From Bythopirellula sp. (lineage in GTDB: Bacteria > Planctomycetota > Planctomycetia > Pirellulales > Lacipirellulaceae): DNA of 64,000 nucleotides. The notes beneath the pieces are model-generated. The model was given only the letters and a program-made list of their open reading frames with translations. It was not told the origin of the DNA and searched no databases. Positions 26,168-62,829 of this stretch are shown here, one piece after another. The position numbers were made by a program, and so were the translations under genes. Location of the stretch: positions 1,248,001 through 1,312,000 of the forward strand of contig OZ244170.1 in NCBI GenBank assembly GCA_965216565.1, written 5' to 3'. Within the stretch, counting starts at the first letter, position 1. Every line of letters begins with the position of its first letter.

Positions 26168-27403
26168 CTATTGCTCAGGTTGGATTTGTTCGGCCTTGGC
26201 CAGGGAAAACGCCTCACAGGCAAGCACTTCGACAAAGCCCTGACTGCTTTGTGGATTGAGACCATCGCTGGCTTCCATCGATGCATCTGCCGGGTTGTAG
26301 AGTGAGGCTGGGCAATCGGTCAGCGATTGGAAGTAAATGTTGCCGCGATACAGACCTGCTTTCACGGTGCCGGTGGCGTGTTTCGCTAAAAGGTCGATTC
26401 CGGCAAGCGCGGCCTGGGCTCCTGGATCATAAAGTCTTGCATCGTAGATCTGCTCCGCGACGAGTCGCGACATCTGATGAAACAGTCCGGTCGCGCGTCG
26501 ATCCATGGTTGCTTGATAAACAAACTGTAGGCACATACCCAATAACTCGAGCCCAGGGGCTTCATAGACACCGCGACTTTTGGTGCCAATGATGCGGTTC
26601 TCAAGCGCGTTACTCAGTCCGATACCGTTTCTACCGGCGATTTCGTTGGCCTGCATCATGGCTTCCAGTGGTGCGACGTCGATCCCATTGATCGAACTGC
26701 AGCGTCCTTGCTCGAATCGGATGGTCACGTCCTCGATGGAATCGGGAGCGTCGTGCGGCCAAACGCACATGGTGGGTTCAACAATTAAACAGGAAGTTTC
26801 TAGACTCTCCAAATCCTCGGCTTCGTGACTTAGCCCAGCGAGATTGGCATCCGTCGAGTAGCGTTTTTGCACTACCTCTGCTTCGATTCCCATATCGCGC
26901 AGGTAAGCCGCCATTTGTTTGCGTCCTGGGAATTCTTCCAGCAGAGTTGGATCTCGCCAGGGAGCATAAACTTTCATGTCCGGTGCCAGCACATTGCTGT
27001 AGCGCTCAAATCGAATCTGATCGTTACCGCGACCTGTCGCTCCATGGACGAGCACCGTGCAACCATGCTTGCGCATACTTTCGATCAAGCCCTTCACCGT
27101 AATCGCTCGCGCGATGCCGGTGGTATTCCAATAGCCACCGTCGTACTTCGCCTGCGAACGTAGCATCATGAAACAGGCTTCGGCCATTTCGGCTTTGAGG
27201 TCGACGATGATCGTCTCAGCGCCCGTTGGCTGCATCTTCTTTCGGACGTCTTCAATATCTTCTTCGTCAGGTTGTCCGAGATCTGCCGTAAAGCAGGTGA
27301 CATCACAACCGGCTTCCATAAGCCGCTTAGTCACCGCCTTGCTATCGAGTCCCCCTGAAACACAAATCCCGAGTTTGTGCCCTGTTAATTCACCTAGTCT
27401 CAT
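26168..27403 (-). CDS. argG: Argininosuccinate synthase
   Basis: SGGLDS PP-loop, HGATGRGNDQIRF, STDANLAGLSHE, ENRIIGTKSRGVYEAPG. Confidence 0.93.
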   Translation of the reverse strand: MRLGELTGHKLGICVSGGLDSKAVTKRLMEAGCDVTCFTADLGQPDEEDIEDVRKKMQPTGAETIIVDLKAEMAEACFMMLRSQAKYDGGYWNTTGIARAITVKGLIESMRKHGCTVLVHGATGRGNDQIRFERYSNVLAPDMKVYAPWRDPTLLEEFPGRKQMAAYLRDMGIEAEVVQKRYSTDANLAGLSHEAEDLESLETSCLIVEPTMCVWPHDAPDSIEDVTIRFEQGRCSSINGIDVAPLEAMMQANEIAGRNGIGLSNALENRIIGTKSRGVYEAPGLELLGMCLQFVYQATMDRRATGLFHQMSRLVAEQIYDARLYDPGAQAALAGIDLLAKHATGTVKAGLYRGNIYFQSLTDCPASLYNPADASMEASDGLNPQSSQGFVEVLACEAFSLAKAEQIQPEQ

Positions 27404-27458: not shown

Positions 27459-28655
27459 TCAGAGCGATTCAACGAACTCCGAATCGTGTGCCACATCCGC
27501 ACTATTGTAGCGTGTAGTGAGGCTTCGCATAACTCCATCAAAAACTGCCAAGCCCGTCGAAAGGACATCGTCGGGAAAGCTGTATTCAGGGTGATGCAGC
27601 CCCATGGCCGTTTCACCAATCCCCAAGCCGAAATGGAGCGTCGGGCAGACTCGCGAGAAATGCGAAAAATCTTCGGACCAACGAAAAGCAGATTGTAGTT
27701 CCTGATACTGGATGTGCAGTTCACCGCAACAGTGTTCGAGCAATTCCACTAGTGAAGGATCGTTTTGGCTGGCAGGAAACCACTCTGCTTTGGCAATTTC
27801 GAGGTCGAGTCCATCGCTTACCGCCGCGTTTCGCACTAACGTTTCGAGTTGCTCGAACAGCATATTGAGAGTCGCTGTGGAAGCCGAACGAAGTGTTGCC
27901 AACAAGGTGGCATTGCCGGGAGTCAATCCGAACGATTCGCCACCCATTTGCACATGAGTCACGGATGCCAGGCGATAGGGATCAGCCTCGACATCACTTA
28001 AACCAGGAATCGCGGTAAGCAGTTGTGCCAGAACATTTCGGGGAGACCTTGCTTCCTCCGGTTCTGCAGCATGAGAATCAATGCCGCGCAGTAAAATGCG
28101 CACTCCACCAGAAGCGCTGGCAAAGGTGCCCGGCCTGCAAACAATGGTATTGAGAGCGAAGCCAGGAAGGTTATGCAACGCTATCGCGTAGTCGGGCTGT
28201 ATGGATGGGAACTGGGGATCGTCGAGGATCCGCAATGCTCCCTCCCCAGTCTCCTCGGCGGGTTGAAAAAGTAATACCACTCGGCCTGAGGCTGGTCGCT
28301 TGCAATGGAGCAAAGGGGCTAACCCCGCCAAGATGGCCATGTGGCCATCGTGTCCGCAGCGATGAGAAGCTTGCTCCGCAAAAGTGGCGGTGCCTTCGGC
28401 GTTTGTTATTGACAGCGCATCCAACTCACTCCGGAACAACAGCGTGGGTCCCTCTTCGTTGCCTTCGAAAACCGCTGCAACCCCATGCCCGCCAAGATTG
28501 GTAAGCAGCGAGTCGGGAGCGTAAGCAAGCAGAAAGTTTGCAATAATCCGCGCGGTAACCACTTCTTGGCCGGCTGGCTCAGCGCACACATGCAAAGTAC
28601 TGCGGAGCGTTCTAAGAATCTCGAGAAGAATAGAATCATTAAGGACGGGCGTCAT
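27459..28655 (-). CDS. M20D-family amidohydrolase
   Basis: RSELDAL, HRCGHDGHM, FQPAEETG, HNLPG, SEDF, LHHPEY. Confidence 0.9.
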   Translation of the reverse strand: MTPVLNDSILLEILRTLRSTLHVCAEPAGQEVVTARIIANFLLAYAPDSLLTNLGGHGVAAVFEGNEEGPTLLFRSELDALSITNAEGTATFAEQASHRCGHDGHMAILAGLAPLLHCKRPASGRVVLLFQPAEETGEGALRILDDPQFPSIQPDYAIALHNLPGFALNTIVCRPGTFASASGGVRILLRGIDSHAAEPEEARSPRNVLAQLLTAIPGLSDVEADPYRLASVTHVQMGGESFGLTPGNATLLATLRSASTATLNMLFEQLETLVRNAAVSDGLDLEIAKAEWFPASQNDPSLVELLEHCCGELHIQYQELQSAFRWSEDFSHFSRVCPTLHFGLGIGETAMGLHHPEYSFPDDVLSTGLAVFDGVMRSLTTRYNSADVAHDSEFVESL

Positions 28656-28708: not shown

Positions 28709-30055
28709 TTAGATTTCTTGGGAGGCCCCGGTTGCAGGAGCTGGACTCTTGCCTTGTAACAGTGCTCCTACCTCTCCTGCCAAGAGAAGCAAGGCAACCA
28801 AATTGGGAATGACGACGAAAGCGTTCAGCAAATCTGCCAAGGCCCAAGTGGCTCGCACCCCGGCCAGAGCTCCACCCGTGATTGCGATGCAGTAAAGTAT
28901 CCGATAGGGCACCTTAGCTCGCGGTCCAAATAGATAGGCAGCACAAGTCTCGCCGTAGAACGCCCATGCAATCAACGTCGACAAGCCGAATAGAACCGAT
29001 GCGATCATCACAGTTGGCGCACCAAGGGGACCAAGTGCTTGTCCCATCGCGTGTGCGGTCAACGCCGCTGAATCGAGTCCAGACTGCCAGGCGCCAGTTA
29101 GTAGTAGTACGAATCCGGTAGCTGTAGCCACAACTAGCGTGTCAATGAACACGCCCAACATCGCGATCTTGCCTTGCGAGATCGGATCGCTCGTTTGAGC
29201 TGAGGCGTGCGCAATCGGCACCGAGCCCGTTCCAGCTTCGTTGGAGTAGACGCCGCGCGCTAAACCGAATCGCATTGCTTGCTGAACGGTCGCACCCAAG
29301 AAACCCCCAGCCCCGGCTGCTGGAGTAAAGGCATGTTCGAACACCAGGCCAAACACTTCGGGAATCCTTGCAGCATAAAGGGCAATGGCAGAACCCGCAG
29401 CAATTAAGTAGATCGCCCCCATCAATGGAGTTAGGATTTCCGAAACTCGCCCAATCGAGTGAACACCTCCCAATATCACGAACGCCGCCACCAGGGCGAC
29501 TAACGAGCAAGTGACAATAGGAGCCCAGCCCAGTTCAGATTGAACCACGGATGCAATCGAGTTGCTCTGCACCGTGGTAGTTGCGACAAGGGTTTTTACT
29601 GCCATAACAAACGCAAAAAAACCAGCTACCTTTGGCCAGCCAAGTCGAGTCTCGAGATAGTACATCGGTCCCCCGGCGTAGAATCCATCCTCTGCTCTAC
29701 GCCGATACCGAACCCCCAGGACCGATTCTGCAAACATGGTTGCCATCCCGACAACGCCAGAAACCCACATCCAGAATAAGGCCCCCGGTCCACCCGCCAT
29801 GATCGCCGTCGCGACACCCGCAATATTCCCATTTCCGACGACTCCCCCGACCGCCGTCATCAGTGCTGCAAAGGAGGAAACGTCTCCTTCCCCCGTTGAG
29901 GCCCGACTTTTCATCACGGCTCGGCAAGCTGGAACAAAGCCCCATACTTGGACAAAGCGATTCTTGAACCCCACGTAGAGACCGACGCCCAGCACCAAGC
30001 TAAGCATCGGCACACCCCAGAGCCATCCACTGGCCGCATCAATCCATGATGTCAT
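28709..30055 (-). CDS. Alanine/glycine:cation symporter (AGCS) family transporter
   Basis: GNGNIAGVA, GGPGALFWMW, GGPMYY, RGVYSNEAGTGS, FIDT. Confidence 0.92.
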   Translation of the reverse strand: MTSWIDAASGWLWGVPMLSLVLGVGLYVGFKNRFVQVWGFVPACRAVMKSRASTGEGDVSSFAALMTAVGGVVGNGNIAGVATAIMAGGPGALFWMWVSGVVGMATMFAESVLGVRYRRRAEDGFYAGGPMYYLETRLGWPKVAGFFAFVMAVKTLVATTTVQSNSIASVVQSELGWAPIVTCSLVALVAAFVILGGVHSIGRVSEILTPLMGAIYLIAAGSAIALYAARIPEVFGLVFEHAFTPAAGAGGFLGATVQQAMRFGLARGVYSNEAGTGSVPIAHASAQTSDPISQGKIAMLGVFIDTLVVATATGFVLLLTGAWQSGLDSAALTAHAMGQALGPLGAPTVMIASVLFGLSTLIAWAFYGETCAAYLFGPRAKVPYRILYCIAITGGALAGVRATWALADLLNAFVVIPNLVALLLLAGEVGALLQGKSPAPATGASQEI

Positions 30056-31535
30056 TGTGAGACTCGATATGGGCGTCGTCTTGCGTTCGATAATCAGCTT
30101 TGTCGAGCTTATGCGATTTCATTTTTCTCAACAGAGTCCGCCGACTGATACCAGCAATTTTTGCAGCCTCTGCCATGAGTCCTTGCGTTTCTTCAAGACA
30201 CCTTTCCAGGTACGCTTGTTCCACGGCCGCCAAGTTTTCTTGAAGCGACTTGGTGGTCTTTACGATTTCATCCAAACCGTTTTGTGGGCTTGGGTGGCGG
30301 ACTCGAACGGCGGGTTTCGGCACATCTCCCCGAAGATTCTGATCTGGAACTAGTTCTTCAAAATCGCTCTTGTTAACACGTTCGCCGCAGTGAGTAAGCA
30401 CCAGTCGCTCAGAAAAGTTTTGCAATTGGCGCACGTTGCCCGGCCAGTGGTAAGCGACCAGAGCATCGAGGAAATCCTCAGTCAAATCGGGACGAGTGAC
30501 GTTGTAGTCCTCAGCCAGCTTACGTGAAAAATGAGCGAAAAGAAACACGATGTCTTCCGGTCGATCCCGCAGCGGAGGTAACTCGAGTCGCATGACATCG
30601 AGCCTGTAGAATAAATCCTCTCGGAATTTGCCGCTTTGCACATGGCTTTCCAAAGCATCGCTAGTTGCTGCTATTACCCGTACATCGACCTTAATCTCTT
30701 CGTGCCCACCAACAGGCCTGACGGCTTCTTCTTGCAAAGCACGCAGCAAATGGTACTGCACGGCGAGCGGTATATTTCCGATCTCATCAAGGAATAAAGT
30801 CCCTCCGTCGGCGTGGCGAAATAGTCCTAGCTTGTCCTTAGTCGCGCCTGTAAATGTACCTTCGACATGGCCGAAAAGTTCAGAGTTGATAAGTGATTCG
30901 TCGATCGCGCCACAGTTTAGCGGGACGAAACGTCCACTCCGTCCCGAGTGTTTGTGTATGGCACGAGCAAGTAGCTCTTTACCGGTACCCGTTTCGCCCA
31001 AGATGAGGACAGTTGCTTCGGAGGTAGAGACTCGCGTTGCGGTGTCGAATAGATCCCACATTGTTTGACTGCGCGAGTACATTCCCTCGAATTCATTGCG
31101 GTCGCTTGTTTGCTCGCCCAATAAGGCAGCCCGTGGCAGGAGTTGCTGAGCATGGACCAACTTGACAACTTCTCTAGCACACGTGGCCACAGAATTGGTC
31201 AACAAGACATCCTTTGCCCCAGCATTAAGCAGATCCCGCACCAGGGGACCGCTCGCTTTCGGCAGCCAGACCACCACGTCGACCATCGGCCAGCGATCGC
31301 GCAATTGCGGGATGACTTCGGTGGCGGGCAGTCCTTTCGTCTCATTGGGGCCTATCAAGATTGCCCTGGCCTGCAGGTCCTCCTTGGGACGCAAGATCTG
31401 GCCCAACCGCCGCACGGTCGACGTTGCCATTCCATGTTCACGGAGCGGACGGCTAAGCTCGGAGCAGCCATATAAGATTAAGAGCGGTTTTTCGATGGGT
31501 GGCGTCATAGCGGTCAATTCTGACCCATTTTGCAT
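30039..31535 (-). CDS. Sigma54-dependent enhancer-binding protein (pseudo-receiver + AAA+ + Fis HTH)
   Basis: GETGTGKE, SELFGH, GTFTGA, LFLDEIG, FREDLFYRL, WPGNVRQL, GISRRTLLRKM; start 31535 or 31508. Confidence 0.92.
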   Translation of the reverse strand: MQNGSELTAMTPPIEKPLLILYGCSELSRPLREHGMATSTVRRLGQILRPKEDLQARAILIGPNETKGLPATEVIPQLRDRWPMVDVVVWLPKASGPLVRDLLNAGAKDVLLTNSVATCAREVVKLVHAQQLLPRAALLGEQTSDRNEFEGMYSRSQTMWDLFDTATRVSTSEATVLILGETGTGKELLARAIHKHSGRSGRFVPLNCGAIDESLINSELFGHVEGTFTGATKDKLGLFRHADGGTLFLDEIGNIPLAVQYHLLRALQEEAVRPVGGHEEIKVDVRVIAATSDALESHVQSGKFREDLFYRLDVMRLELPPLRDRPEDIVFLFAHFSRKLAEDYNVTRPDLTEDFLDALVAYHWPGNVRQLQNFSERLVLTHCGERVNKSDFEELVPDQNLRGDVPKPAVRVRHPSPQNGLDEIVKTTKSLQENLAAVEQAYLERCLEETQGLMAEAAKIAGISRRTLLRKMKSHKLDKADYRTQDDAHIESHNDIMD

Positions 31536-31619: not shown

Positions 31620-31635
31620 CGGCATAGGCTTTGCA
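31620..31635 (+). promoter_or_regulatory. Sigma54 (-24/-12) promoter CGGCATAGGCTTTGCA for the argB operon
   Basis: GG 31621-22, N10, GC 31633-34; TTGCA -12 box; divergent from a bEBP gene. Confidence 0.8.
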
Positions 31636-31863: not shown

Positions 31864-32622
31864 ATGAACACACAACAGATCCAACTGTTAAAGGTTGGTG
31901 GCGCACTGCTCAATGATACTGATTACTTGGAGCGTCTTGGCAGGCACATACAAACGTTAGTGGATGCCAGCAAACGAGTAGTCCTAGTACACGGTGGAGG
32001 CAAGGAAATTGCTTCCCTTCACGATCGACTTAAGGTCCCCCATCGAAAGGAATTGGGACTGCGCGTTACCTCAGACGCCAGTATGGATCTGGTAACGAAA
32101 GTGCTTTGTGGGCTGGTTAACAAACGCCTAGTAGCTCACTTCAATCGAGCCGGCGTACGATCATTGGGAATTTGTGGCGCCGATCAAGGAGTGATGCATG
32201 CAGAATTCCTCAACCAGGCTCAGCTAGGCCGGGTTGGTGGGCCACCTACTGTTGAGGTAGATGAGATACAATCGCTACTCTTGACGACTCAGGTTTTAGT
32301 GGTCTCTCCCGTGTGCCTCGGGCCAGATGGTGCGTTGCTGAATGTCAATGCCGATCTGGTGGCTCAATCGATGGCAGTCGCTCTCAATACCGAATGCCTC
32401 GATTTTGTTACCGACGTCGATGGTGTGCAAACGGCGGAAGGCACAGCGCGATCGTTAGTTCCCGATCAAATCGAGGAGATGATTCAAAACTCGATTGTTG
32501 AAGGCGGGATGATTCCCAAGCTACAAGCAAGTATTGCCGCACTCGGTGGCGGTGTATCCAAGGTCCGAGTAGGAAACTTGGAGAGCCTAAGCCAAGGGTT
32601 GGCAACGGAGGTGGCGGCTTGA
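31864..32622 (+). CDS. argB: Acetylglutamate kinase (amino-acid kinase family)
   Basis: KVGG, VHGGGKEI, GLRVT, NVNAD, TDVDGV, GGMIPKL. Confidence 0.88.
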   Translation: MNTQQIQLLKVGGALLNDTDYLERLGRHIQTLVDASKRVVLVHGGGKEIASLHDRLKVPHRKELGLRVTSDASMDLVTKVLCGLVNKRLVAHFNRAGVRSLGICGADQGVMHAEFLNQAQLGRVGGPPTVEVDEIQSLLLTTQVLVVSPVCLGPDGALLNVNADLVAQSMAVALNTECLDFVTDVDGVQTAEGTARSLVPDQIEEMIQNSIVEGGMIPKLQASIAALGGGVSKVRVGNLESLSQGLATEVAA

Positions 32623-33188
32623 AAACTGTAGATTCCAACATCTGCTCTAAGATGATATCGCACAACAGCAGGGTCTTTGAAAATCAAGTAGCTAGTAGCA
32701 GTTCCGATGAAACTGCAGCAGTTGACTATGAACTTCAAGCCGCCGAGTTTCAGGATATTCAGTCGCTAATCCAATTATCGAGCGTCAATGTTCCTCACTT
32801 GGCATTAACCACCGTCTGGGGAATTCCTTGGACTTGGAAACATTACACCGTCGCCAAGGACCAATCAGGCAGGCTGCTGGGGGCTGGATCTCTCCTGCCG
32901 CTCGATAATTGTTTGGCTGAGATTCGCGGCTTGGTGGTCGAAAAGTGTCACCGTGATGCCGGGATAGCCTCCAAAATAGTTGAACACATGCTGAGACGAG
33001 CCCGCGTGCTGGAAATGAACGCAGTATGCGTGACACGCAAGCCGAGCTTCTTCCGTAAGTTTGGCTTTCAAGAAACGAATCCCGCTTGGCTCGAAATTCA
33101 ACAGCACCCCAAGCTGAGACGTGGCATTCTCGAAGATTCAGTTTCCCAACCTTTGGCACCACGCATTGCGATGGCCCTAGCCGGGTAG
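32619..33188 (+). CDS. GNAT N-acetyltransferase (short ArgA-like)
   Basis: LAEIRGLVV, RDAGIASKIV, FFRKFGF; TTGA overlap with argB. Confidence 0.75.
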   Translation: MKTVDSNICSKMISHNSRVFENQVASSSSDETAAVDYELQAAEFQDIQSLIQLSSVNVPHLALTTVWGIPWTWKHYTVAKDQSGRLLGAGSLLPLDNCLAEIRGLVVEKCHRDAGIASKIVEHMLRRARVLEMNAVCVTRKPSFFRKFGFQETNPAWLEIQQHPKLRRGILEDSVSQPLAPRIAMALAG

Positions 33189-33286: not shown

Positions 33287-33853
33287 ATGAGTACAGCCAC
33301 GATGACAACCACTCGCCGACGGAAGCGTCGAACGAAAGAACAGTTTAAAGTCGTCCCAGCTCGCTGGGAGGATATGAAAAAAGTGGCCAACTTCCTGCGG
33401 TCGACTGCGCACTGGTATCAACCTATCGTCGAGCAGAAAGATATGTCGGAGCACGCAGTCGACAACCAATGGGCTGCAAAAAACTTCCAGCGGAGAGATT
33501 TTTATCTGGGTGTTGTAGAAGGTGAAGCAATCGGGACTATTTCACTGCAATACTTTAACAAGATGGCTTACGTTGGATATATCTATCTTGATGCAGAACA
33601 TGTCGGAAATGGTTATGGTCAGAAACTCATGAAATTCGCTGAGTCTAAAGCACAAAGCAAAGGCATGAAGGGACTCGCACTCTTGGCACATCCCGAGGCC
33701 ACTTGGGCCAAACGTGCTTACTTAAAGTATGGTTTCGAGATCGTGGCTTCCGACAAGGCAGACGTGCTAGCCTGGCAAAACGGCGTCCTGAAACCTTACT
33801 ACGAAGAGGACTTCGAACTCTACCACTTCGATTTCCCCACTGGCCAACGATAG
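33287..33853 (+). CDS. GNAT N-acetyltransferase
   Basis: AAGGA RBS before ATG 33287; motif A VGNGYGQKLM, AYLKYGF. Confidence 0.85.
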   Translation: MSTATMTTTRRRKRRTKEQFKVVPARWEDMKKVANFLRSTAHWYQPIVEQKDMSEHAVDNQWAAKNFQRRDFYLGVVEGEAIGTISLQYFNKMAYVGYIYLDAEHVGNGYGQKLMKFAESKAQSKGMKGLALLAHPEATWAKRAYLKYGFEIVASDKADVLAWQNGVLKPYYEEDFELYHFDFPTGQR

Positions 33854-33985: not shown

Positions 33986-35245
33986 ATGTCGAATAACAAA
34001 CAAAATTTGAAAGGAAAAGTTGCTTTACTTGGCTATTGCGTACCAGCCATGGAAGCTTTGGATAAACTTGGACGCCCCTTCGTTTCGGTCGTGCCCCCCG
34101 ACTTCGAGTCTACGATGGAAGAGGCCGATCTCCCTTACGTCTTATGGGAATTCGGCACTGTCAACGAAAAGTCGATGAGCTTAGCGAAAACGCTAGGCGA
34201 TATGGGCGTGACGGTCGCGGTCCCACTCTTCGAAGAAACCGTAGAATGGGCCGGAGCACTGAATGGGCACTTCCGCGAAGATCGTCGACTCTTCACCAAG
34301 TATCTTTTGTTCCGCGACAAAGCGATGATGAAACGCAGGGCTCAAATGAGTGGTATCCGCGTTGGAGTTTTCGAAGAGGCAGAAAGCAAGGAAGACGTAC
34401 ACAGATTCTTCAAACGCGTGAACAAGGCACTCGCCAAAATCGACGGAGATGTTGAAGACCCTGTACATCTCAAACCGTTAGCTGCTGCTGGATGTGTGGG
34501 GCACTGCTTCATACGCTCCGTGGAGGACATCGAAAAACTCACGCACGAAAATTTTCCATGTCTACTTGAAACACATTTGGATGGCCAGGAGTTCTCCTGC
34601 GAGGTCTTCATCCATAACAGGAAAATCCGGTTTCTAAACATCAACGAGTATGTACACTTGGGGCATTCCAACTTTAGTCCTGCCTCGCCAAAACTCGACG
34701 CGTCTCGTGAACTAATCGAAAAAGCAGTTTATGAATTAATCGAGGCCTTCGACATCCAGTACGGAATGATTCATCCAGAGTTTTTCATCACGCCCGACGG
34801 CAAGATCAACTTTGGCGAGGTCGCAGCACGCGTGCCGGGTGGTCACATTTTTGAGTTAATACACAAAGCCTATGGATTCGATCCTTTTGCAGGATTCGTC
34901 TTGTGTGCAGATCCAGAAACATCGGAAGAAGAACTCAACGACTTCTTCCCAGACCCCGCTGACCATCAAGGCTACTCAGGTTGTTTGATGGTTTATCCCA
35001 AGCAGAAGGTCGTCACACGGGTCGCCCTGCCTGAGAAGCTACTGGCTGAGCCTTACTACGAGAAACACAATCTGTTCCAGCCTGTGAATGCAAAAGTTGC
35101 TGAACGGGCCGGGTTCGGCGATCACTACGGGACGGTCTACTTCCAAGGCGATGACGCCGAAGAAATGACCCGCCTGCTGCTCGACTACGAACAAGCAGAA
35201 TTCTACACCAATGACGAAGCTCGCGTTCCCGTGGAACAGGCGTAA
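33986..35245 (+). CDS. ATP-grasp carboxylate-amine (amide/peptide) ligase
   Basis: RDKAMMK, HLKP, LLETHLDGQEFSCE, IHPEFF, FGEVAARVPGG; GAGG RBS. Confidence 0.88.
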   Translation: MSNNKQNLKGKVALLGYCVPAMEALDKLGRPFVSVVPPDFESTMEEADLPYVLWEFGTVNEKSMSLAKTLGDMGVTVAVPLFEETVEWAGALNGHFREDRRLFTKYLLFRDKAMMKRRAQMSGIRVGVFEEAESKEDVHRFFKRVNKALAKIDGDVEDPVHLKPLAAAGCVGHCFIRSVEDIEKLTHENFPCLLETHLDGQEFSCEVFIHNRKIRFLNINEYVHLGHSNFSPASPKLDASRELIEKAVYELIEAFDIQYGMIHPEFFITPDGKINFGEVAARVPGGHIFELIHKAYGFDPFAGFVLCADPETSEEELNDFFPDPADHQGYSGCLMVYPKQKVVTRVALPEKLLAEPYYEKHNLFQPVNAKVAERAGFGDHYGTVYFQGDDAEEMTRLLLDYEQAEFYTNDEARVPVEQA

Positions 35246-35258
35246 TCGAGGAGAATCC

Positions 35259-37256
35259 ATGCCAACGACAGAACTAGCAGGAGCCAAAATCGACGTCGTC
35301 CAACGGCTTGCCGCAAAGCTCGATACTGCCCTGGAAGAACTTACCGCTGCCAAGCCGTACGCAAAGAGTACGTATCAAACCAATGTGTTTCAAATTGCAG
35401 AGACGCTGATGGGTTCCGACGAAGGGCACAAAGCGCTACTCGCACGAGCACATCAGTTCGACCAAGCTGGAGTTTTCGAGGGTGGCCCCTGGGAAGACCC
35501 TACCAAGCTACAACCACCACTGGTTGCTGGTAGTTTGAAAGCCGCTGGAGTCTATCCTGTGGTCGAAACGCTCAGTGAACTGCGGATGCTTGCTATTGCT
35601 CGAGGTAACGGAAACGAACAGTCGAAAGTCTCTCAGCAAGAGGCAACTGACTTTCTCAACGAAGTGATGGCTCTGAATCTGGAATTCATTTTTCCGGCGG
35701 ATACAGAAGAGGAGCGGATCATGGGGGGGCCTCATCGCGACTCGAATCTTCGTCTCTTTGCGCTCATCGCGGAAGAATTGGGCATGGGCTCGCTGTTGGG
35801 CGATGTGGTCACGGAAATCGAACAGATCTGTGCTCAGCGTCCCATCATGACACGACGCGTGCGACGAATGATCGAAATGGCGTCTCGTATTCCCGACGAG
35901 CAATCGAGCCCCGAGATTTCCCAACGTCTGCAAGGATTTACTAAGGCGGTCAATCATCCCAGCCCCCTCAGTCGCGAGCATCCTGAACTCACCGCTTACA
36001 GAAAAGTTGTGCAAGAGTGTGATTACGCCACACTCGAGTCCGAAGCACGTGCGTTTGCGGTGACGTTGACACTCACGGGTCTCACCTCGCCACACCATGC
36101 AGTCCTGCTGCGATGCCTTCGAGCAAAAGAACCCGACTTGATTGGAACAGCGCTCGCGCTGAATGACTTGGGCGAAGCGGAGCTAGGACAGAATCTGGAA
36201 TTCGTCCAGCAGTTGATTCGCATTTGCATTCTGCCCGCGACGGCACAGAGCATCTACGGCTTCGCCAGAATCCTGGAACTGGGGTTATTATCGCGACAGG
36301 AAGTGTCGGCAGGCTTGCGACGCCTTATCGACCTGGATCTTCAATCGGATGTTCGGCGAAATCTGTTGGCTCAGCGACAGGTGCGTGACGGGGTAACGGC
36401 CAATGTTCTTTTGCTAGCCGGAGTCATTAGTGTTTTGGGACAGCCGTTAGGAGTGGGACAAGGAAAAAACCCCACCTGCCAATCAGCCCGTGCAATAAGC
36501 CTCTGGGCGCAACATGCGCACGGTTATCTTTTGGAGCTACTTGTATCAGCCGCTCGCGACGGCGTCATCGAAGTGGATTTCGAAGGAGAAGCTCTCCGCA
36601 CCGATAATCTAAGCGGAGGCGTGGCAACCCAAATAGACTTCGATCTCGATCCGGTATCGATCGTGCTCGTGCCCCATCTCGATGTTCTTTACTCGGCAAT
36701 GATGAAACGCGTTTCGCTTCGTCAAGAAGACGGGCATAAGTGGGTCAATCCCGCGTTCTACGGACGCTGGGTGTCCAGCGGTTTCGCAACGGTGTTTTCA
36801 GCCCTAAATCAAAAAGTCATCTCAGATTACGATGATTTTATTCGGAGATTCTATGCGACACACCATCCCGCGTACAACGAGGGGCATGCCATGATGTACC
36901 CCAGTCCGGTGGGCATATTGGTAACGAATGGTCACGGTGAGTATCTGGGGCCACATGCAATTTCTCTGCAACGCGTCTCGCAAGACAACGATGGCAAACT
37001 TCGTGCCTACTTTTACAATCCTAATAACGAGGGACGTCAGAATTGGGGGCGAGGGGTCGAACCAACCATCAACAGCCATGGTGAGCTAGAGGGTGAATCC
37101 TCACTGCCATTCCATGAATTCGCTACAAGGCTTTACGCGTTTCACTACAACCCGTACGAGGAGGGAGACGCGTACGCAGTACCAGCAGAAGAGATCCAAG
37201 AAATTGAGGAAGCCGCGAAAGCGACCTGGGGCAAAGCTTTCACGTGGTTGAGTTAA
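35259..37256 (+). CDS. Hypothetical protein: helical N-terminus + putative papain/calpain-like cysteine-peptidase domain
   Basis: GAGGAG RBS; GQGKNPTCQS, HAISL, YFYNPNN; ORF certain, function inferred. Confidence 0.7.
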   Translation: MPTTELAGAKIDVVQRLAAKLDTALEELTAAKPYAKSTYQTNVFQIAETLMGSDEGHKALLARAHQFDQAGVFEGGPWEDPTKLQPPLVAGSLKAAGVYPVVETLSELRMLAIARGNGNEQSKVSQQEATDFLNEVMALNLEFIFPADTEEERIMGGPHRDSNLRLFALIAEELGMGSLLGDVVTEIEQICAQRPIMTRRVRRMIEMASRIPDEQSSPEISQRLQGFTKAVNHPSPLSREHPELTAYRKVVQECDYATLESEARAFAVTLTLTGLTSPHHAVLLRCLRAKEPDLIGTALALNDLGEAELGQNLEFVQQLIRICILPATAQSIYGFARILELGLLSRQEVSAGLRRLIDLDLQSDVRRNLLAQRQVRDGVTANVLLLAGVISVLGQPLGVGQGKNPTCQSARAISLWAQHAHGYLLELLVSAARDGVIEVDFEGEALRTDNLSGGVATQIDFDLDPVSIVLVPHLDVLYSAMMKRVSLRQEDGHKWVNPAFYGRWVSSGFATVFSALNQKVISDYDDFIRRFYATHHPAYNEGHAMMYPSPVGILVTNGHGEYLGPHAISLQRVSQDNDGKLRAYFYNPNNEGRQNWGRGVEPTINSHGELEGESSLPFHEFATRLYAFHYNPYEEGDAYAVPAEEIQEIEEAAKATWGKAFTWLS

Positions 37257-37292
37257 TTCAATCGTATTCAGAGCTTGTCCCACAACCGAAAA

Positions 37293-37332
37293 CCCCCTCC
37301 CCTAACCCCTCCCCCGCAGACGGAGGAGAGGG
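37293..37332 (+). repeat. C-rich/G-rich imperfect hairpin resembling a REP-like element
   Basis: CCCCCTCCCCTAACCCCTCCCCCGCAGACGGAGGAGAGGG in an intergenic gap; single copy in the window. Confidence 0.4.
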
Positions 37333-37364
37333 ATTTGGGATAGACACCGGTACACACGACTATC

Positions 37365-38543
37365 ATGAGTTTTGCTTTACCAACTCGACTGAAGGCAATC
37401 GAACCTTCGCAGATTCGTGAAAACATGCGAATCGCCCAAGAGGTTGGGGCGATCAACCTTGCGCAAGGAAGACCCGACTTTAGCACCGCTACGGAAATCA
37501 CGCAGGCCGCGATCGCAGCAATTAAGGCGGGGCACAATCAATACTCAGTGACGTGGGGAATTGAGGAACTTCGGCAAGCGGTTGTCGCTATGTTGACTCG
37601 TCGATTTGCCCTACAGTTCGATCCCGACACAGAATTGACCATCACTTGCGGAGTCACCGAAGCGATCGTAGCTGCCATGCAGGCTCTCGTTGAACCAGGC
37701 GACGAGGTTATCGTCCTGGAGCCTGCCCACGAGAATTACGTCCCTGCGATTCGGTTCGCCGGGGGTGTCCCGAAGTTCGTCACATTGCGACCTCCACAAT
37801 TTGATCTCGATTTGGAGGAACTAAAACAGACGATCAGCTCCAAGACCCGCGCACTAATTCTTAACACTCCGCACAACCCAAGCGGACGAGTCTTTACGGA
37901 AGAAGAGCTAACCGCGATTCTCAGCTTAACAACGGAGCACGGCATCTACGTCGTCACCGATGAGATTTACGATCAGGTGCTCTATCCACCGCATAAACAT
38001 GTTGCCGTAGCAACCGCTGCGCCTGAGCCGAAGATGATAATCACGACAGGTGGCATCTCCAAAACGTATGCCACGACTGGGTGGCGGCTAGGCTACGTTG
38101 CCGCAGAGCCAGAGGTTTCCAGCGCGATTCGAACCGTGCATGACTACTTAACCATTTGTGCACCGACACCTTTCCAATATGCGGCTTTGGCCGCATATCA
38201 GCTACCAGAAAGCTACTATGTGCAGCTTCGCGAAGATTTTTTAGCCCGCCGTAATTGTATGATGGAAGTTTTAGAGCAGAGCGGCTTCAAACCCTATCAA
38301 CCGCAGGGTGCCTACTATCTGATGGCCAGCTTCGACGCGTGGAAGTTCAGCGGCACGTCGCAAGAATTCTCCCGGCAACTGATCACCGAGGCAGGCGTTG
38401 CGGTCGTGCCGGGTACGGCTTTTTACTACCAAGACAAAGAACTTGGCAACAAGCTCGTTCGTTTTGCATTCGCGAAAAATCTCTCTGTACTCGAGCAAGC
38501 AGGGCAACAACTGGCCCTTCGCCAAAAAGAACTTGGATGTTGA
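37365..38543 (+). CDS. PLP-dependent class I aminotransferase (YbdL/kynurenine-methionine aminotransferase-like)
   Basis: INLAQGRPDF, NTPHNPSG, DEIY, ISKTYATTGWRLGY, VVPGTAF, RFAFAK. Confidence 0.92.
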   Translation: MSFALPTRLKAIEPSQIRENMRIAQEVGAINLAQGRPDFSTATEITQAAIAAIKAGHNQYSVTWGIEELRQAVVAMLTRRFALQFDPDTELTITCGVTEAIVAAMQALVEPGDEVIVLEPAHENYVPAIRFAGGVPKFVTLRPPQFDLDLEELKQTISSKTRALILNTPHNPSGRVFTEEELTAILSLTTEHGIYVVTDEIYDQVLYPPHKHVAVATAAPEPKMIITTGGISKTYATTGWRLGYVAAEPEVSSAIRTVHDYLTICAPTPFQYAALAAYQLPESYYVQLREDFLARRNCMMEVLEQSGFKPYQPQGAYYLMASFDAWKFSGTSQEFSRQLITEAGVAVVPGTAFYYQDKELGNKLVRFAFAKNLSVLEQAGQQLALRQKELGC

Positions 38544-54785: not shown

Positions 54786-54801
54786 TGGCATACGCTTTGC
54801 A
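54786..54801 (+). promoter_or_regulatory. Sigma54 promoter TGGCATACGCTTTGCA for the PRC-barrel gene
   Basis: GG 54787-88, N10, GC 54799-800; near-consensus; dyad TGACGT-N6-ACGTCA at 54674-54691. Confidence 0.82.
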
Positions 54802-62813: not shown

Positions 62814-62829
62814 CGGCACGCGGGTTGCT
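62814..62829 (+). promoter_or_regulatory. Sigma54 promoter CGGCACGCGGGTTGCT for the CsbD-like operon
   Basis: GG 62815-16, N10, GC 62827-28; GGCACG -24 box. Confidence 0.78.

Follow-up and report, generated by a model that had tools for sequence, protein, structure and literature searches.

In the window, by which we mean the whole 64-kb stretch of DNA that was analysed, two genes lie in tandem on the forward strand. The first encodes an ATP-grasp ligase of 419 aa identified by Pfam (33986–35245; hereafter G), and the second, 13 nt downstream, encodes a protein of 665 aa (35259–37256; P0001, hereafter T). The start codon of T is the ATG at 35259, with GAGGAG located 5 nt upstream. Its open reading frame, a structural model and fold searches describe a helical N-terminal part followed by a C-terminal domain with a predicted papain/calpain fold.

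Three further genes precede G on the same strand. Immediately upstream is a GNAT acetyltransferase (33287–33853; Pfam), homologs of which occur beside G or T in loci of Myxococcota, Planctomycetota and Nitrospirota. It is preceded by an ArgA-like GNAT (32619–33188), which resembles amino-acid N-acetyltransferases and scores below the NCBIfam cut-offs, and by the acetylglutamate kinase gene argB (31864–32622), which scores over the TIGR00761 cut-off and has a 30%-identical homolog elsewhere in the genome. Facing argB on the reverse strand is a divergent sigma-54 enhancer-binding activator (30039–31535), assigned by Pfam and found in our locus survey to recur beside the cassette. Beyond the activator, also on the reverse strand, are a Na+/alanine-family amino-acid carrier (AgcS; 28709–30055; Pfam and NCBIfam), an M20 amidohydrolase (27459–28655) whose best named match, below cut-off, is the deacetylase DoeB2, and the argininosuccinate synthase gene argG (26168–27403; NCBIfam), the sole copy found in the genome. 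Both argC and the other argB homolog are located away from the window cassette, and argG follows T in four Nitrospirota loci.

A consensus scan identified a candidate sigma-54-type -24/-12 element upstream of argB on the forward strand (31620–31635). The window contains three such matches against 0.45 expected; the other two are at 54786–54801, nearly identical to that at 31620, and at 62814–62829. Just 2 of the 13 other activator-bearing loci have a sigma-54 box. On the other side of the cassette, a C-rich and then G-rich stretch (37280–37345), which may form a hairpin, separates T from a class I aminotransferase gene (37365–38543); a related aminotransferase lies near the G-T pair in a few other loci.

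Predicted catalytic residues of T

The initial annotation had proposed a calpain-like Gln/Cys/His/Asn set in T, with Gln six residues ahead of the Cys encoded at 36477, 159 aa from Cys to His and 21 aa from His to Asn. Translation confirmed these codon positions and both spacings. The residues, all read on the forward strand, are Q401, the predicted oxyanion-hole Gln (CAA, 36459–36461); C407, the predicted nucleophile (TGC, 36477–36479); H566, the predicted catalytic His (CAT, 36954–36956); and N587, the predicted third member of the triad (AAT, 37017–37019). The motif YFYNP had been placed at 37017, which is where the Asn codon lies, while the motif itself begins at 37008. The spacing of the motifs alone is weak evidence, since the loose pattern Q-x5-C-x120-200-H-x15-25-N also matches 144 of the 2425 open frames of at least 300 aa in the genome. 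A stricter pattern (QG..C / HA / NP), written post hoc, matched T only among the same open frames.

The four residues are strongly conserved. C407 was found in 120/120 and H566 in 119/120 close T sequences, and the complete set in all 87 T sequences from the first 80 loci, a set in which the paralog stood in for one main copy. The survey was then extended to 137 loci with 128 T copies, among them close kin and some duplicates; every copy has Q, C and H, and 127 have N. We also compared 48 full-length representatives with 21–62% identity to T, which were taken from 151 rows by 50% clustering and a minimum length of 540 aa, two partial matches being dropped. Q was retained in 48 of these, C in 47, H in 46 and N in 45, and all exceptions were confined to three remote proteins, P0269, P0296 and P0311. 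The other four cysteines of T are poorly kept, in 10/48 representatives at most. However, 72 positions of T, including H493 and H629, are at least 97% conserved in the 87-sequence set, and the predicted fold was therefore needed for choosing the triad.

Four remote members of the family, P0269, P0296, P0311 and P0329, have lost one or more catalytic residues and are possible pseudo-enzymes as far as their sequences indicate. Another N-terminus is common to P0271, P0296, P0311 and P0329.

Predicted fold of T

The AlphaFold model of the whole protein has a pLDDT of 93.7 and is helical up to about residue 435. Residues 1–374 (35259–36380, forward strand) are all-helical, as had been expected of the long stretch that precedes the domain. 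Conserved polar residues in this region are W78, R109, E150, R153, Q193-R194-P195 and E262, and in the fold search, where it was part of the whole-protein model, it gave unspecific bundle matches only. No hydrophobic N-terminal stretch was detected (Kyte-Doolittle-19 maximum of 0.49 in the first 30 windows), which agrees with the proposed lack of a signal peptide; we regard the cytoplasmic location of T as borne out at the level of prediction.

The C-terminal part, residues 375–665 (36381–37253, forward strand), was modelled with a pLDDT of 90.5 as a papain-like domain resembling the calpain core. With the whole model, the top 12 Foldseek ranks were calpain cores, the best at E 0.012. With the domain model, four matches reached E ≤ 1e-3, all of them calpains, and the best was calpain-1 (E 3.6e-4, TM 0.41). 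A Foldseek-independent search placed calpain-9 first (Z 7.7, rmsd 4.6, 198 residues aligned), tied with C39 domains (122 aligned), and next came staphopain, phytochelatin synthase and further cysteine-proteinase folds. A second structure comparison (VIA) gave calpain-3 (Z 8.2, rmsd 4.7, 200 aligned). The alignments with calpains extend over about 195–200 residues, versus 120–150 for C39, staphopain and phytochelatin synthase. Judged in part by title, nearly all of the 50 fold matches listed for the domain are cysteine-proteinase folds. Values of Z 7–8, TM about 0.41 and rmsd 4–5 Å between the model and the calpains are middling, and their weight comes from the agreement among the searches and with the motifs.

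The arrangement of the predicted active site is that of a papain-like (clan CA) enzyme. The model contains the core helix and the antiparallel sheet; C407 is the first residue of helix 407–419, H566 lies on strand 562–575, and N587 is just past the adjacent strand 581–586, with the conserved oxyanion Gln six residues before the Cys. According to PMC10318531, the catalytic Cys of papain-like enzymes is always at a helix N-terminus, and the layout of C407, H566 and N587 in the T model matches the arrangement described there.

Thus the calpain-like Gln/Cys/His/Asn set of the initial annotation is supported by conservation, by the topology of the model and by the fold searches, and T, with these conserved residues, is very probably an active cysteine enzyme. 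It could be argued that T is catalytically dead or incidental and serves as a scaffold or regulator of G, since its four residues are not uniquely conserved among the 72 positions, other residues stand where calpains have Trp next to Cys and next to Asn-Pro, and the three remote representatives lack one or more triad residues. We consider this highly improbable: the full set occupies fold-required positions in 127 of the 128 locus copies, and is also complete in all 33 copies that lie apart from G.

Relationship to the calpain family

The calpain core (MEROPS C2, PF00648; PDB 7w7o, 6bkj and 2p0r) is the best fold match of T, covering about 200 residues, and calpains both rank first and align longest. 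The motifs P-x4-QG-x4-C, HA and NP occur in T in identical order, and the distances in the calpain-9 chain (Q-C 6, C-H 157) are close to those in T (6 and 159). In contrast, T has an identity of 12–15% and no PF00648 match, lacks the calpain III and EF-hand domains, carries a 375-aa helical region ahead of the core, and is tied to a ligase gene. It also has Cys-Gln and NPN instead of the Cys-Trp and NPW that carry the DCW and NPW tryptophans of C2; Q408 is found in 45/48 and N589 in 44/48 representatives, with no Trp among the residues listed at these positions.

Sequence comparison gave no assignment to a known family. There is no Pfam or NCBIfam family for T (0 Pfam matches at E ≤ 0.1) and no sequence relative in the PDB, where the domain profile finds no chain at E ≤ 10. 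The hhalign comparison with a bacterial PF00648 protein was not significant (E 0.72), its sole aligned block setting Cys on Cys. An ESM Atlas search with T returned unnamed clusters only, and one cluster that bears PF00648 and scored 0.75 is no more than a lead. Because the fold matches calpain and the sequence link fails, we place T as a clan-CA-like enzyme with a calpain-like core, yet outside C2.

The nearest neighbouring family is that of P0355, a weak HMM match to T (E 9.8e-5 among 1.84 billion proteins). In hhalign, P0355 matched the T domain with 96% probability, its Q, C, H and N lining up with those of T, and the family-to-family comparison gave 93%. The same family reached 24% probability against the bacterial C2 protein and E values of at least 0.15 against the PDB; since these links stay weak, there is no firm transitive sequence chain from T to calpain. 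Members of this unannotated sister family (P0355, P0359–P0366) have papain-fold domains with the motifs QGxxGTC / H / RVYFRNPWG, variable N-termini and no good Pfam match for the domain. Several carry the calpain-type NPWG, and the named ones come from Myxococcaceae and Peregrinibacteria.

Distribution of T

T belongs to a large family, with at least 1944 homologs at 90% clustering that are called hypothetical wherever they are named. An HMM search of 1.84 billion representatives yielded 150 T-family clusters at 50%. The closest genome match (83%) is a Bythopirellula MAG, and T is present in 4 of the 301 genomes of the window's phylum. In a FastTree tree, the window T groups with Myxococcota copies. 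This rarity and the tree grouping hint at a possible lateral transfer of T. At least eight bacterial phyla contain the G-T pair itself; many hosts are halophilic or marine by name, and the loci include the culturable genera Planococcus, Halobacillus, Rossellomorea, Marinobacter and Halomonas. No T match was found in a phage collection, and a plasmid collection gave one unannotated record. A 4260-nt contig (L069) assigned to a Thermoplasmatota MAG carries a T homolog, and a second small contig carries G; this may be a binning error.

Genomes carry up to five T paralogs versus up to three G, the extra copies being apart from G. In 7 of the 80 loci (L021, L022, L026, L030, L035, L041 and L046), all from Bacillota, a shorter T paralog of about 605 aa, without the C-terminal ~35 residues, lies about 300–900 nt downstream of T. 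It keeps the full triad and has its own branch in the tree.

Pairing of T with the ligase G

The nearest solved relatives of G are L-amino acid ligases (PDB 4wd3, E 1.6e-5, and 3vot, E 0.044), a group that includes RizA and BacD. The similarity is remote; the conserved ATP-grasp catalytic residues are common to both. G has an ATP-grasp fold in which the residues for nucleotide, metal and catalysis are conserved; K112, K163, E195, H263, E265, E278 and R282 are kept in 105/105 copies.

The initial annotation had named T the partner of the ATP-grasp ligase, and the co-occurrence of the two genes bears this out. Of the first 80 T loci, 60 contain a G homolog, which in 59 immediately precedes T on the same strand, and 19 of the 20 genomes without G at the locus carry it elsewhere, often beside another T copy. 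We then counted both genes across two orders that were picked because they carry the pair, and whose genomes, being kin, are not independent. In the order of G311 (a Halomonas MAG), T is present in 21/201 genomes and a close G in exactly these; a single further match in the G search was a remote ATP-grasp protein (E 3e-22). In the order of G303 (a Bacillaceae genome), the identical 18/151 genomes hold both. Thus two distant orders agree, and none of the 352 genomes has G without T or T without G. The distance matrices of 75 tandem pairs correlate with r 0.87, a value inflated by kinship. T and G probably act on a shared substrate.

RNA contigs that are 85–100% alike to a Rossellomorea locus (two runs of one study) cover G, T and an upstream yebC-family gene. 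One of them bridges the G-T junction and the flanks lack cover, although such contigs cannot prove transcription or a single transcript. Two apparent G-T fusions, in L007 and L044, were rejected as a frameshift and a chance open frame, respectively. No full-length fused T stood out among 150 representatives, the longest of which is 745 aa, in a whole-protein search that covered up to 1164 aa.

Genes surrounding T in related loci

Within 5 kb of T in the first 80 loci, using queries drawn from neighbours already observed, we found GNAT genes of four subfamilies in 33 loci, a transporter in 18, a deacylase or amidohydrolase in 15, the activator in 12, ornithine-pathway genes in 9, and a racemase and argG in 4 each. 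For the query set used, 37/80 loci have neither a GNAT nor a deacylase. The ornithine genes flank one clade only (the same 9/80 loci). Related loci bear argC, argB, argD, an argA-like gene and argJ, with all five in L008, and a scan of 57 ORFs in such loci gave no match to ArgF or ArgH at E ≤ 1e-30. Across the 137 loci, for which ORFs of 90–100 aa upward were considered, neither a conserved target gene nor a short precursor gene was recurrent.

HDAC-family amidohydrolase genes, some accompanied by a GNAT, are near G or T in L120, L121, L183, L187, L193, L196, L067 and L178, and in L003, L004, L007 and L049. They occur in Gammaproteobacteria and in the window's clade, in differing arrangements.

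Proposed function of the G-T pair

We favor, at a probability of roughly 45%, the reading that T, predicted to be a cytoplasmic cysteine enzyme with a papain fold, hydrolyses the amide made by G, the two forming a split synthetase/amidase couple. G would spend ATP in joining one amino acid, which in the window's clade likely belongs to the ornithine/arginine family, to a second amino acid or an amine. This would yield a small peptide or oligomer, which the adjacent GNAT may N-acetylate and which the cell would retain to store nitrogen or as a stress solute. In T, C407, activated by H566 that N587 orients, would attack the carbonyl while Q401 holds the oxyanion, and water would resolve the acyl-thioester on C407, so that T would free the parts of the G product. 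The mechanism assigned here to Cys, His, Asn and Gln is established papain chemistry. The conserved helical N-terminal part may bind the substrate or the ligase, or may gate activity.

A breakdown role of T is favored because stand-alone T paralogs adjoin amidohydrolases and a permease. The calpain-like fold, the co-occurrence of G and T, and the GNAT, deacylase, transporter and ornithine neighbours also count for the couple. There is a precedent, by analogy, in trypanothione synthetase-amidase, which, as described in PMC2427367, combines a papain-like amidase with an ATP-grasp ligase that has the opposite activity. However, the amidase of GspS/TryS is a CHAP domain, unlike calpain. The ornithine genes of a single clade, the 37 loci that lack both GNAT and deacylase, and the rarity of the sigma-54 box beside the activator in other loci also count against the couple. 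A conserved helical region of 375 residues is unusual for a small-molecule amidase and weighs in the same direction.

An obligatory transfer step in biosynthesis would account equally well for the strict co-occurrence in both directions, and a pure hydrolase might be expected in some non-producers; no such case was seen among the 352 genomes. The main rival reading is accordingly that T is a transpeptidase or transacylase working in the biosynthetic direction, as phytochelatin synthase does with glutathione: an acyl-enzyme formed from a G dipeptide would be passed to an amine to give an oligomer, a polymer or a finished amide. The fold searches with T also gave the phytochelatin synthase Alr0975 (Z 6.7–6.8), a growing chain could be accommodated by the large conserved helical region, and the dedicated supply of precursors in L008 suggests high flux. 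We nevertheless regard a transfer role as rather unlikely, because the closest fold is that of calpain, a hydrolase, and the extra T paralogs away from G, which in some cases have amidohydrolases (M20 or HDAC-like) and a permease as neighbours, look catabolic. Still more doubtful is a bolder version, in which G and T are an obligate two-enzyme machine. It would build a hitherto undescribed peptide, based on ornithine/arginine, that serves as a solute or storage polymer, and the calpain-fold enzyme would have been repurposed as a transpeptidase or polymerase that needs neither tRNA nor a carrier.

A protein substrate has to be considered as well. G might add amino acids to a protein target, with T as the eraser or processing protease and the helical region recognising the target. 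A calpain-like core with a long helical region suits protein substrates, the sister-family proteins around P0355 resemble ordinary proteases, and the GNAT and HDAC-like neighbours could act on proteins too. This reading seems improbable to us, since the closest solved relatives of G are ligases of free L-amino acids, the 137 loci show no recurrent target or short precursor gene, and the transporters, racemases and ornithine genes indicate small molecules.

Comparison with known systems

The split couple that we favor resembles glutathionylspermidine/trypanothione synthetase-amidase (PMC2427367) in coupling an ATP-grasp C-N ligase to a papain-like Cys/His enzyme. The known enzyme is a single chain whose N-terminal part is a CHAP domain, whereas here an L-amino-acid-ligase-like G and a calpain-like T are encoded by separate ORFs with no CHAP or GSP Pfam match. 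No GspS/TryS chain was among the sequence or fold matches listed for T, which excludes nothing. Phytochelatin synthase (C83, PF05023; Alr0975, PDB 2btw/2bu3) shares the papain fold and acts on a small peptide made by a ligase. Its alignment with T is shorter (143–153 residues), T has no match to PF05023 or to another family, and glutathione genes were not recurrent in the T neighbourhoods examined.

The 2023 classification of PMC10318531, by its own description, covers entries of Pfam, MEROPS, COG/KOG and the PDB, and no sequence match to T was found in Pfam or the PDB. In the literature that we searched, which mostly left subscription journals outside its coverage, we found no description of the G-T pair or of a calpain-fold partner strictly co-occurring with an L-amino acid ligase. 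The fold and chemistry of T are known in kind; its family, its architecture and its obligate pairing with a ligase are absent from the libraries and literature searched. T defines an unclassified papain-clan family whose partner is fixed and whose predicted active site is precise. That the two genes are so strictly paired suggests an intracellular amide metabolite or polymer in roughly one tenth of the genomes sampled from the two orders, and, if our reading is true, a calpain-like core is employed in small-molecule metabolism.

Some loci may differ in substrate. An alanine-racemase-family gene directly follows T in four loci (L042, L044, L060 and L076). L042 (1179–8638) adds an ornithine-racemase-like gene scoring below cut-off, a sodium/solute symporter and part of argJ, a gene content hinting at D-amino-acid substrates in that clade.
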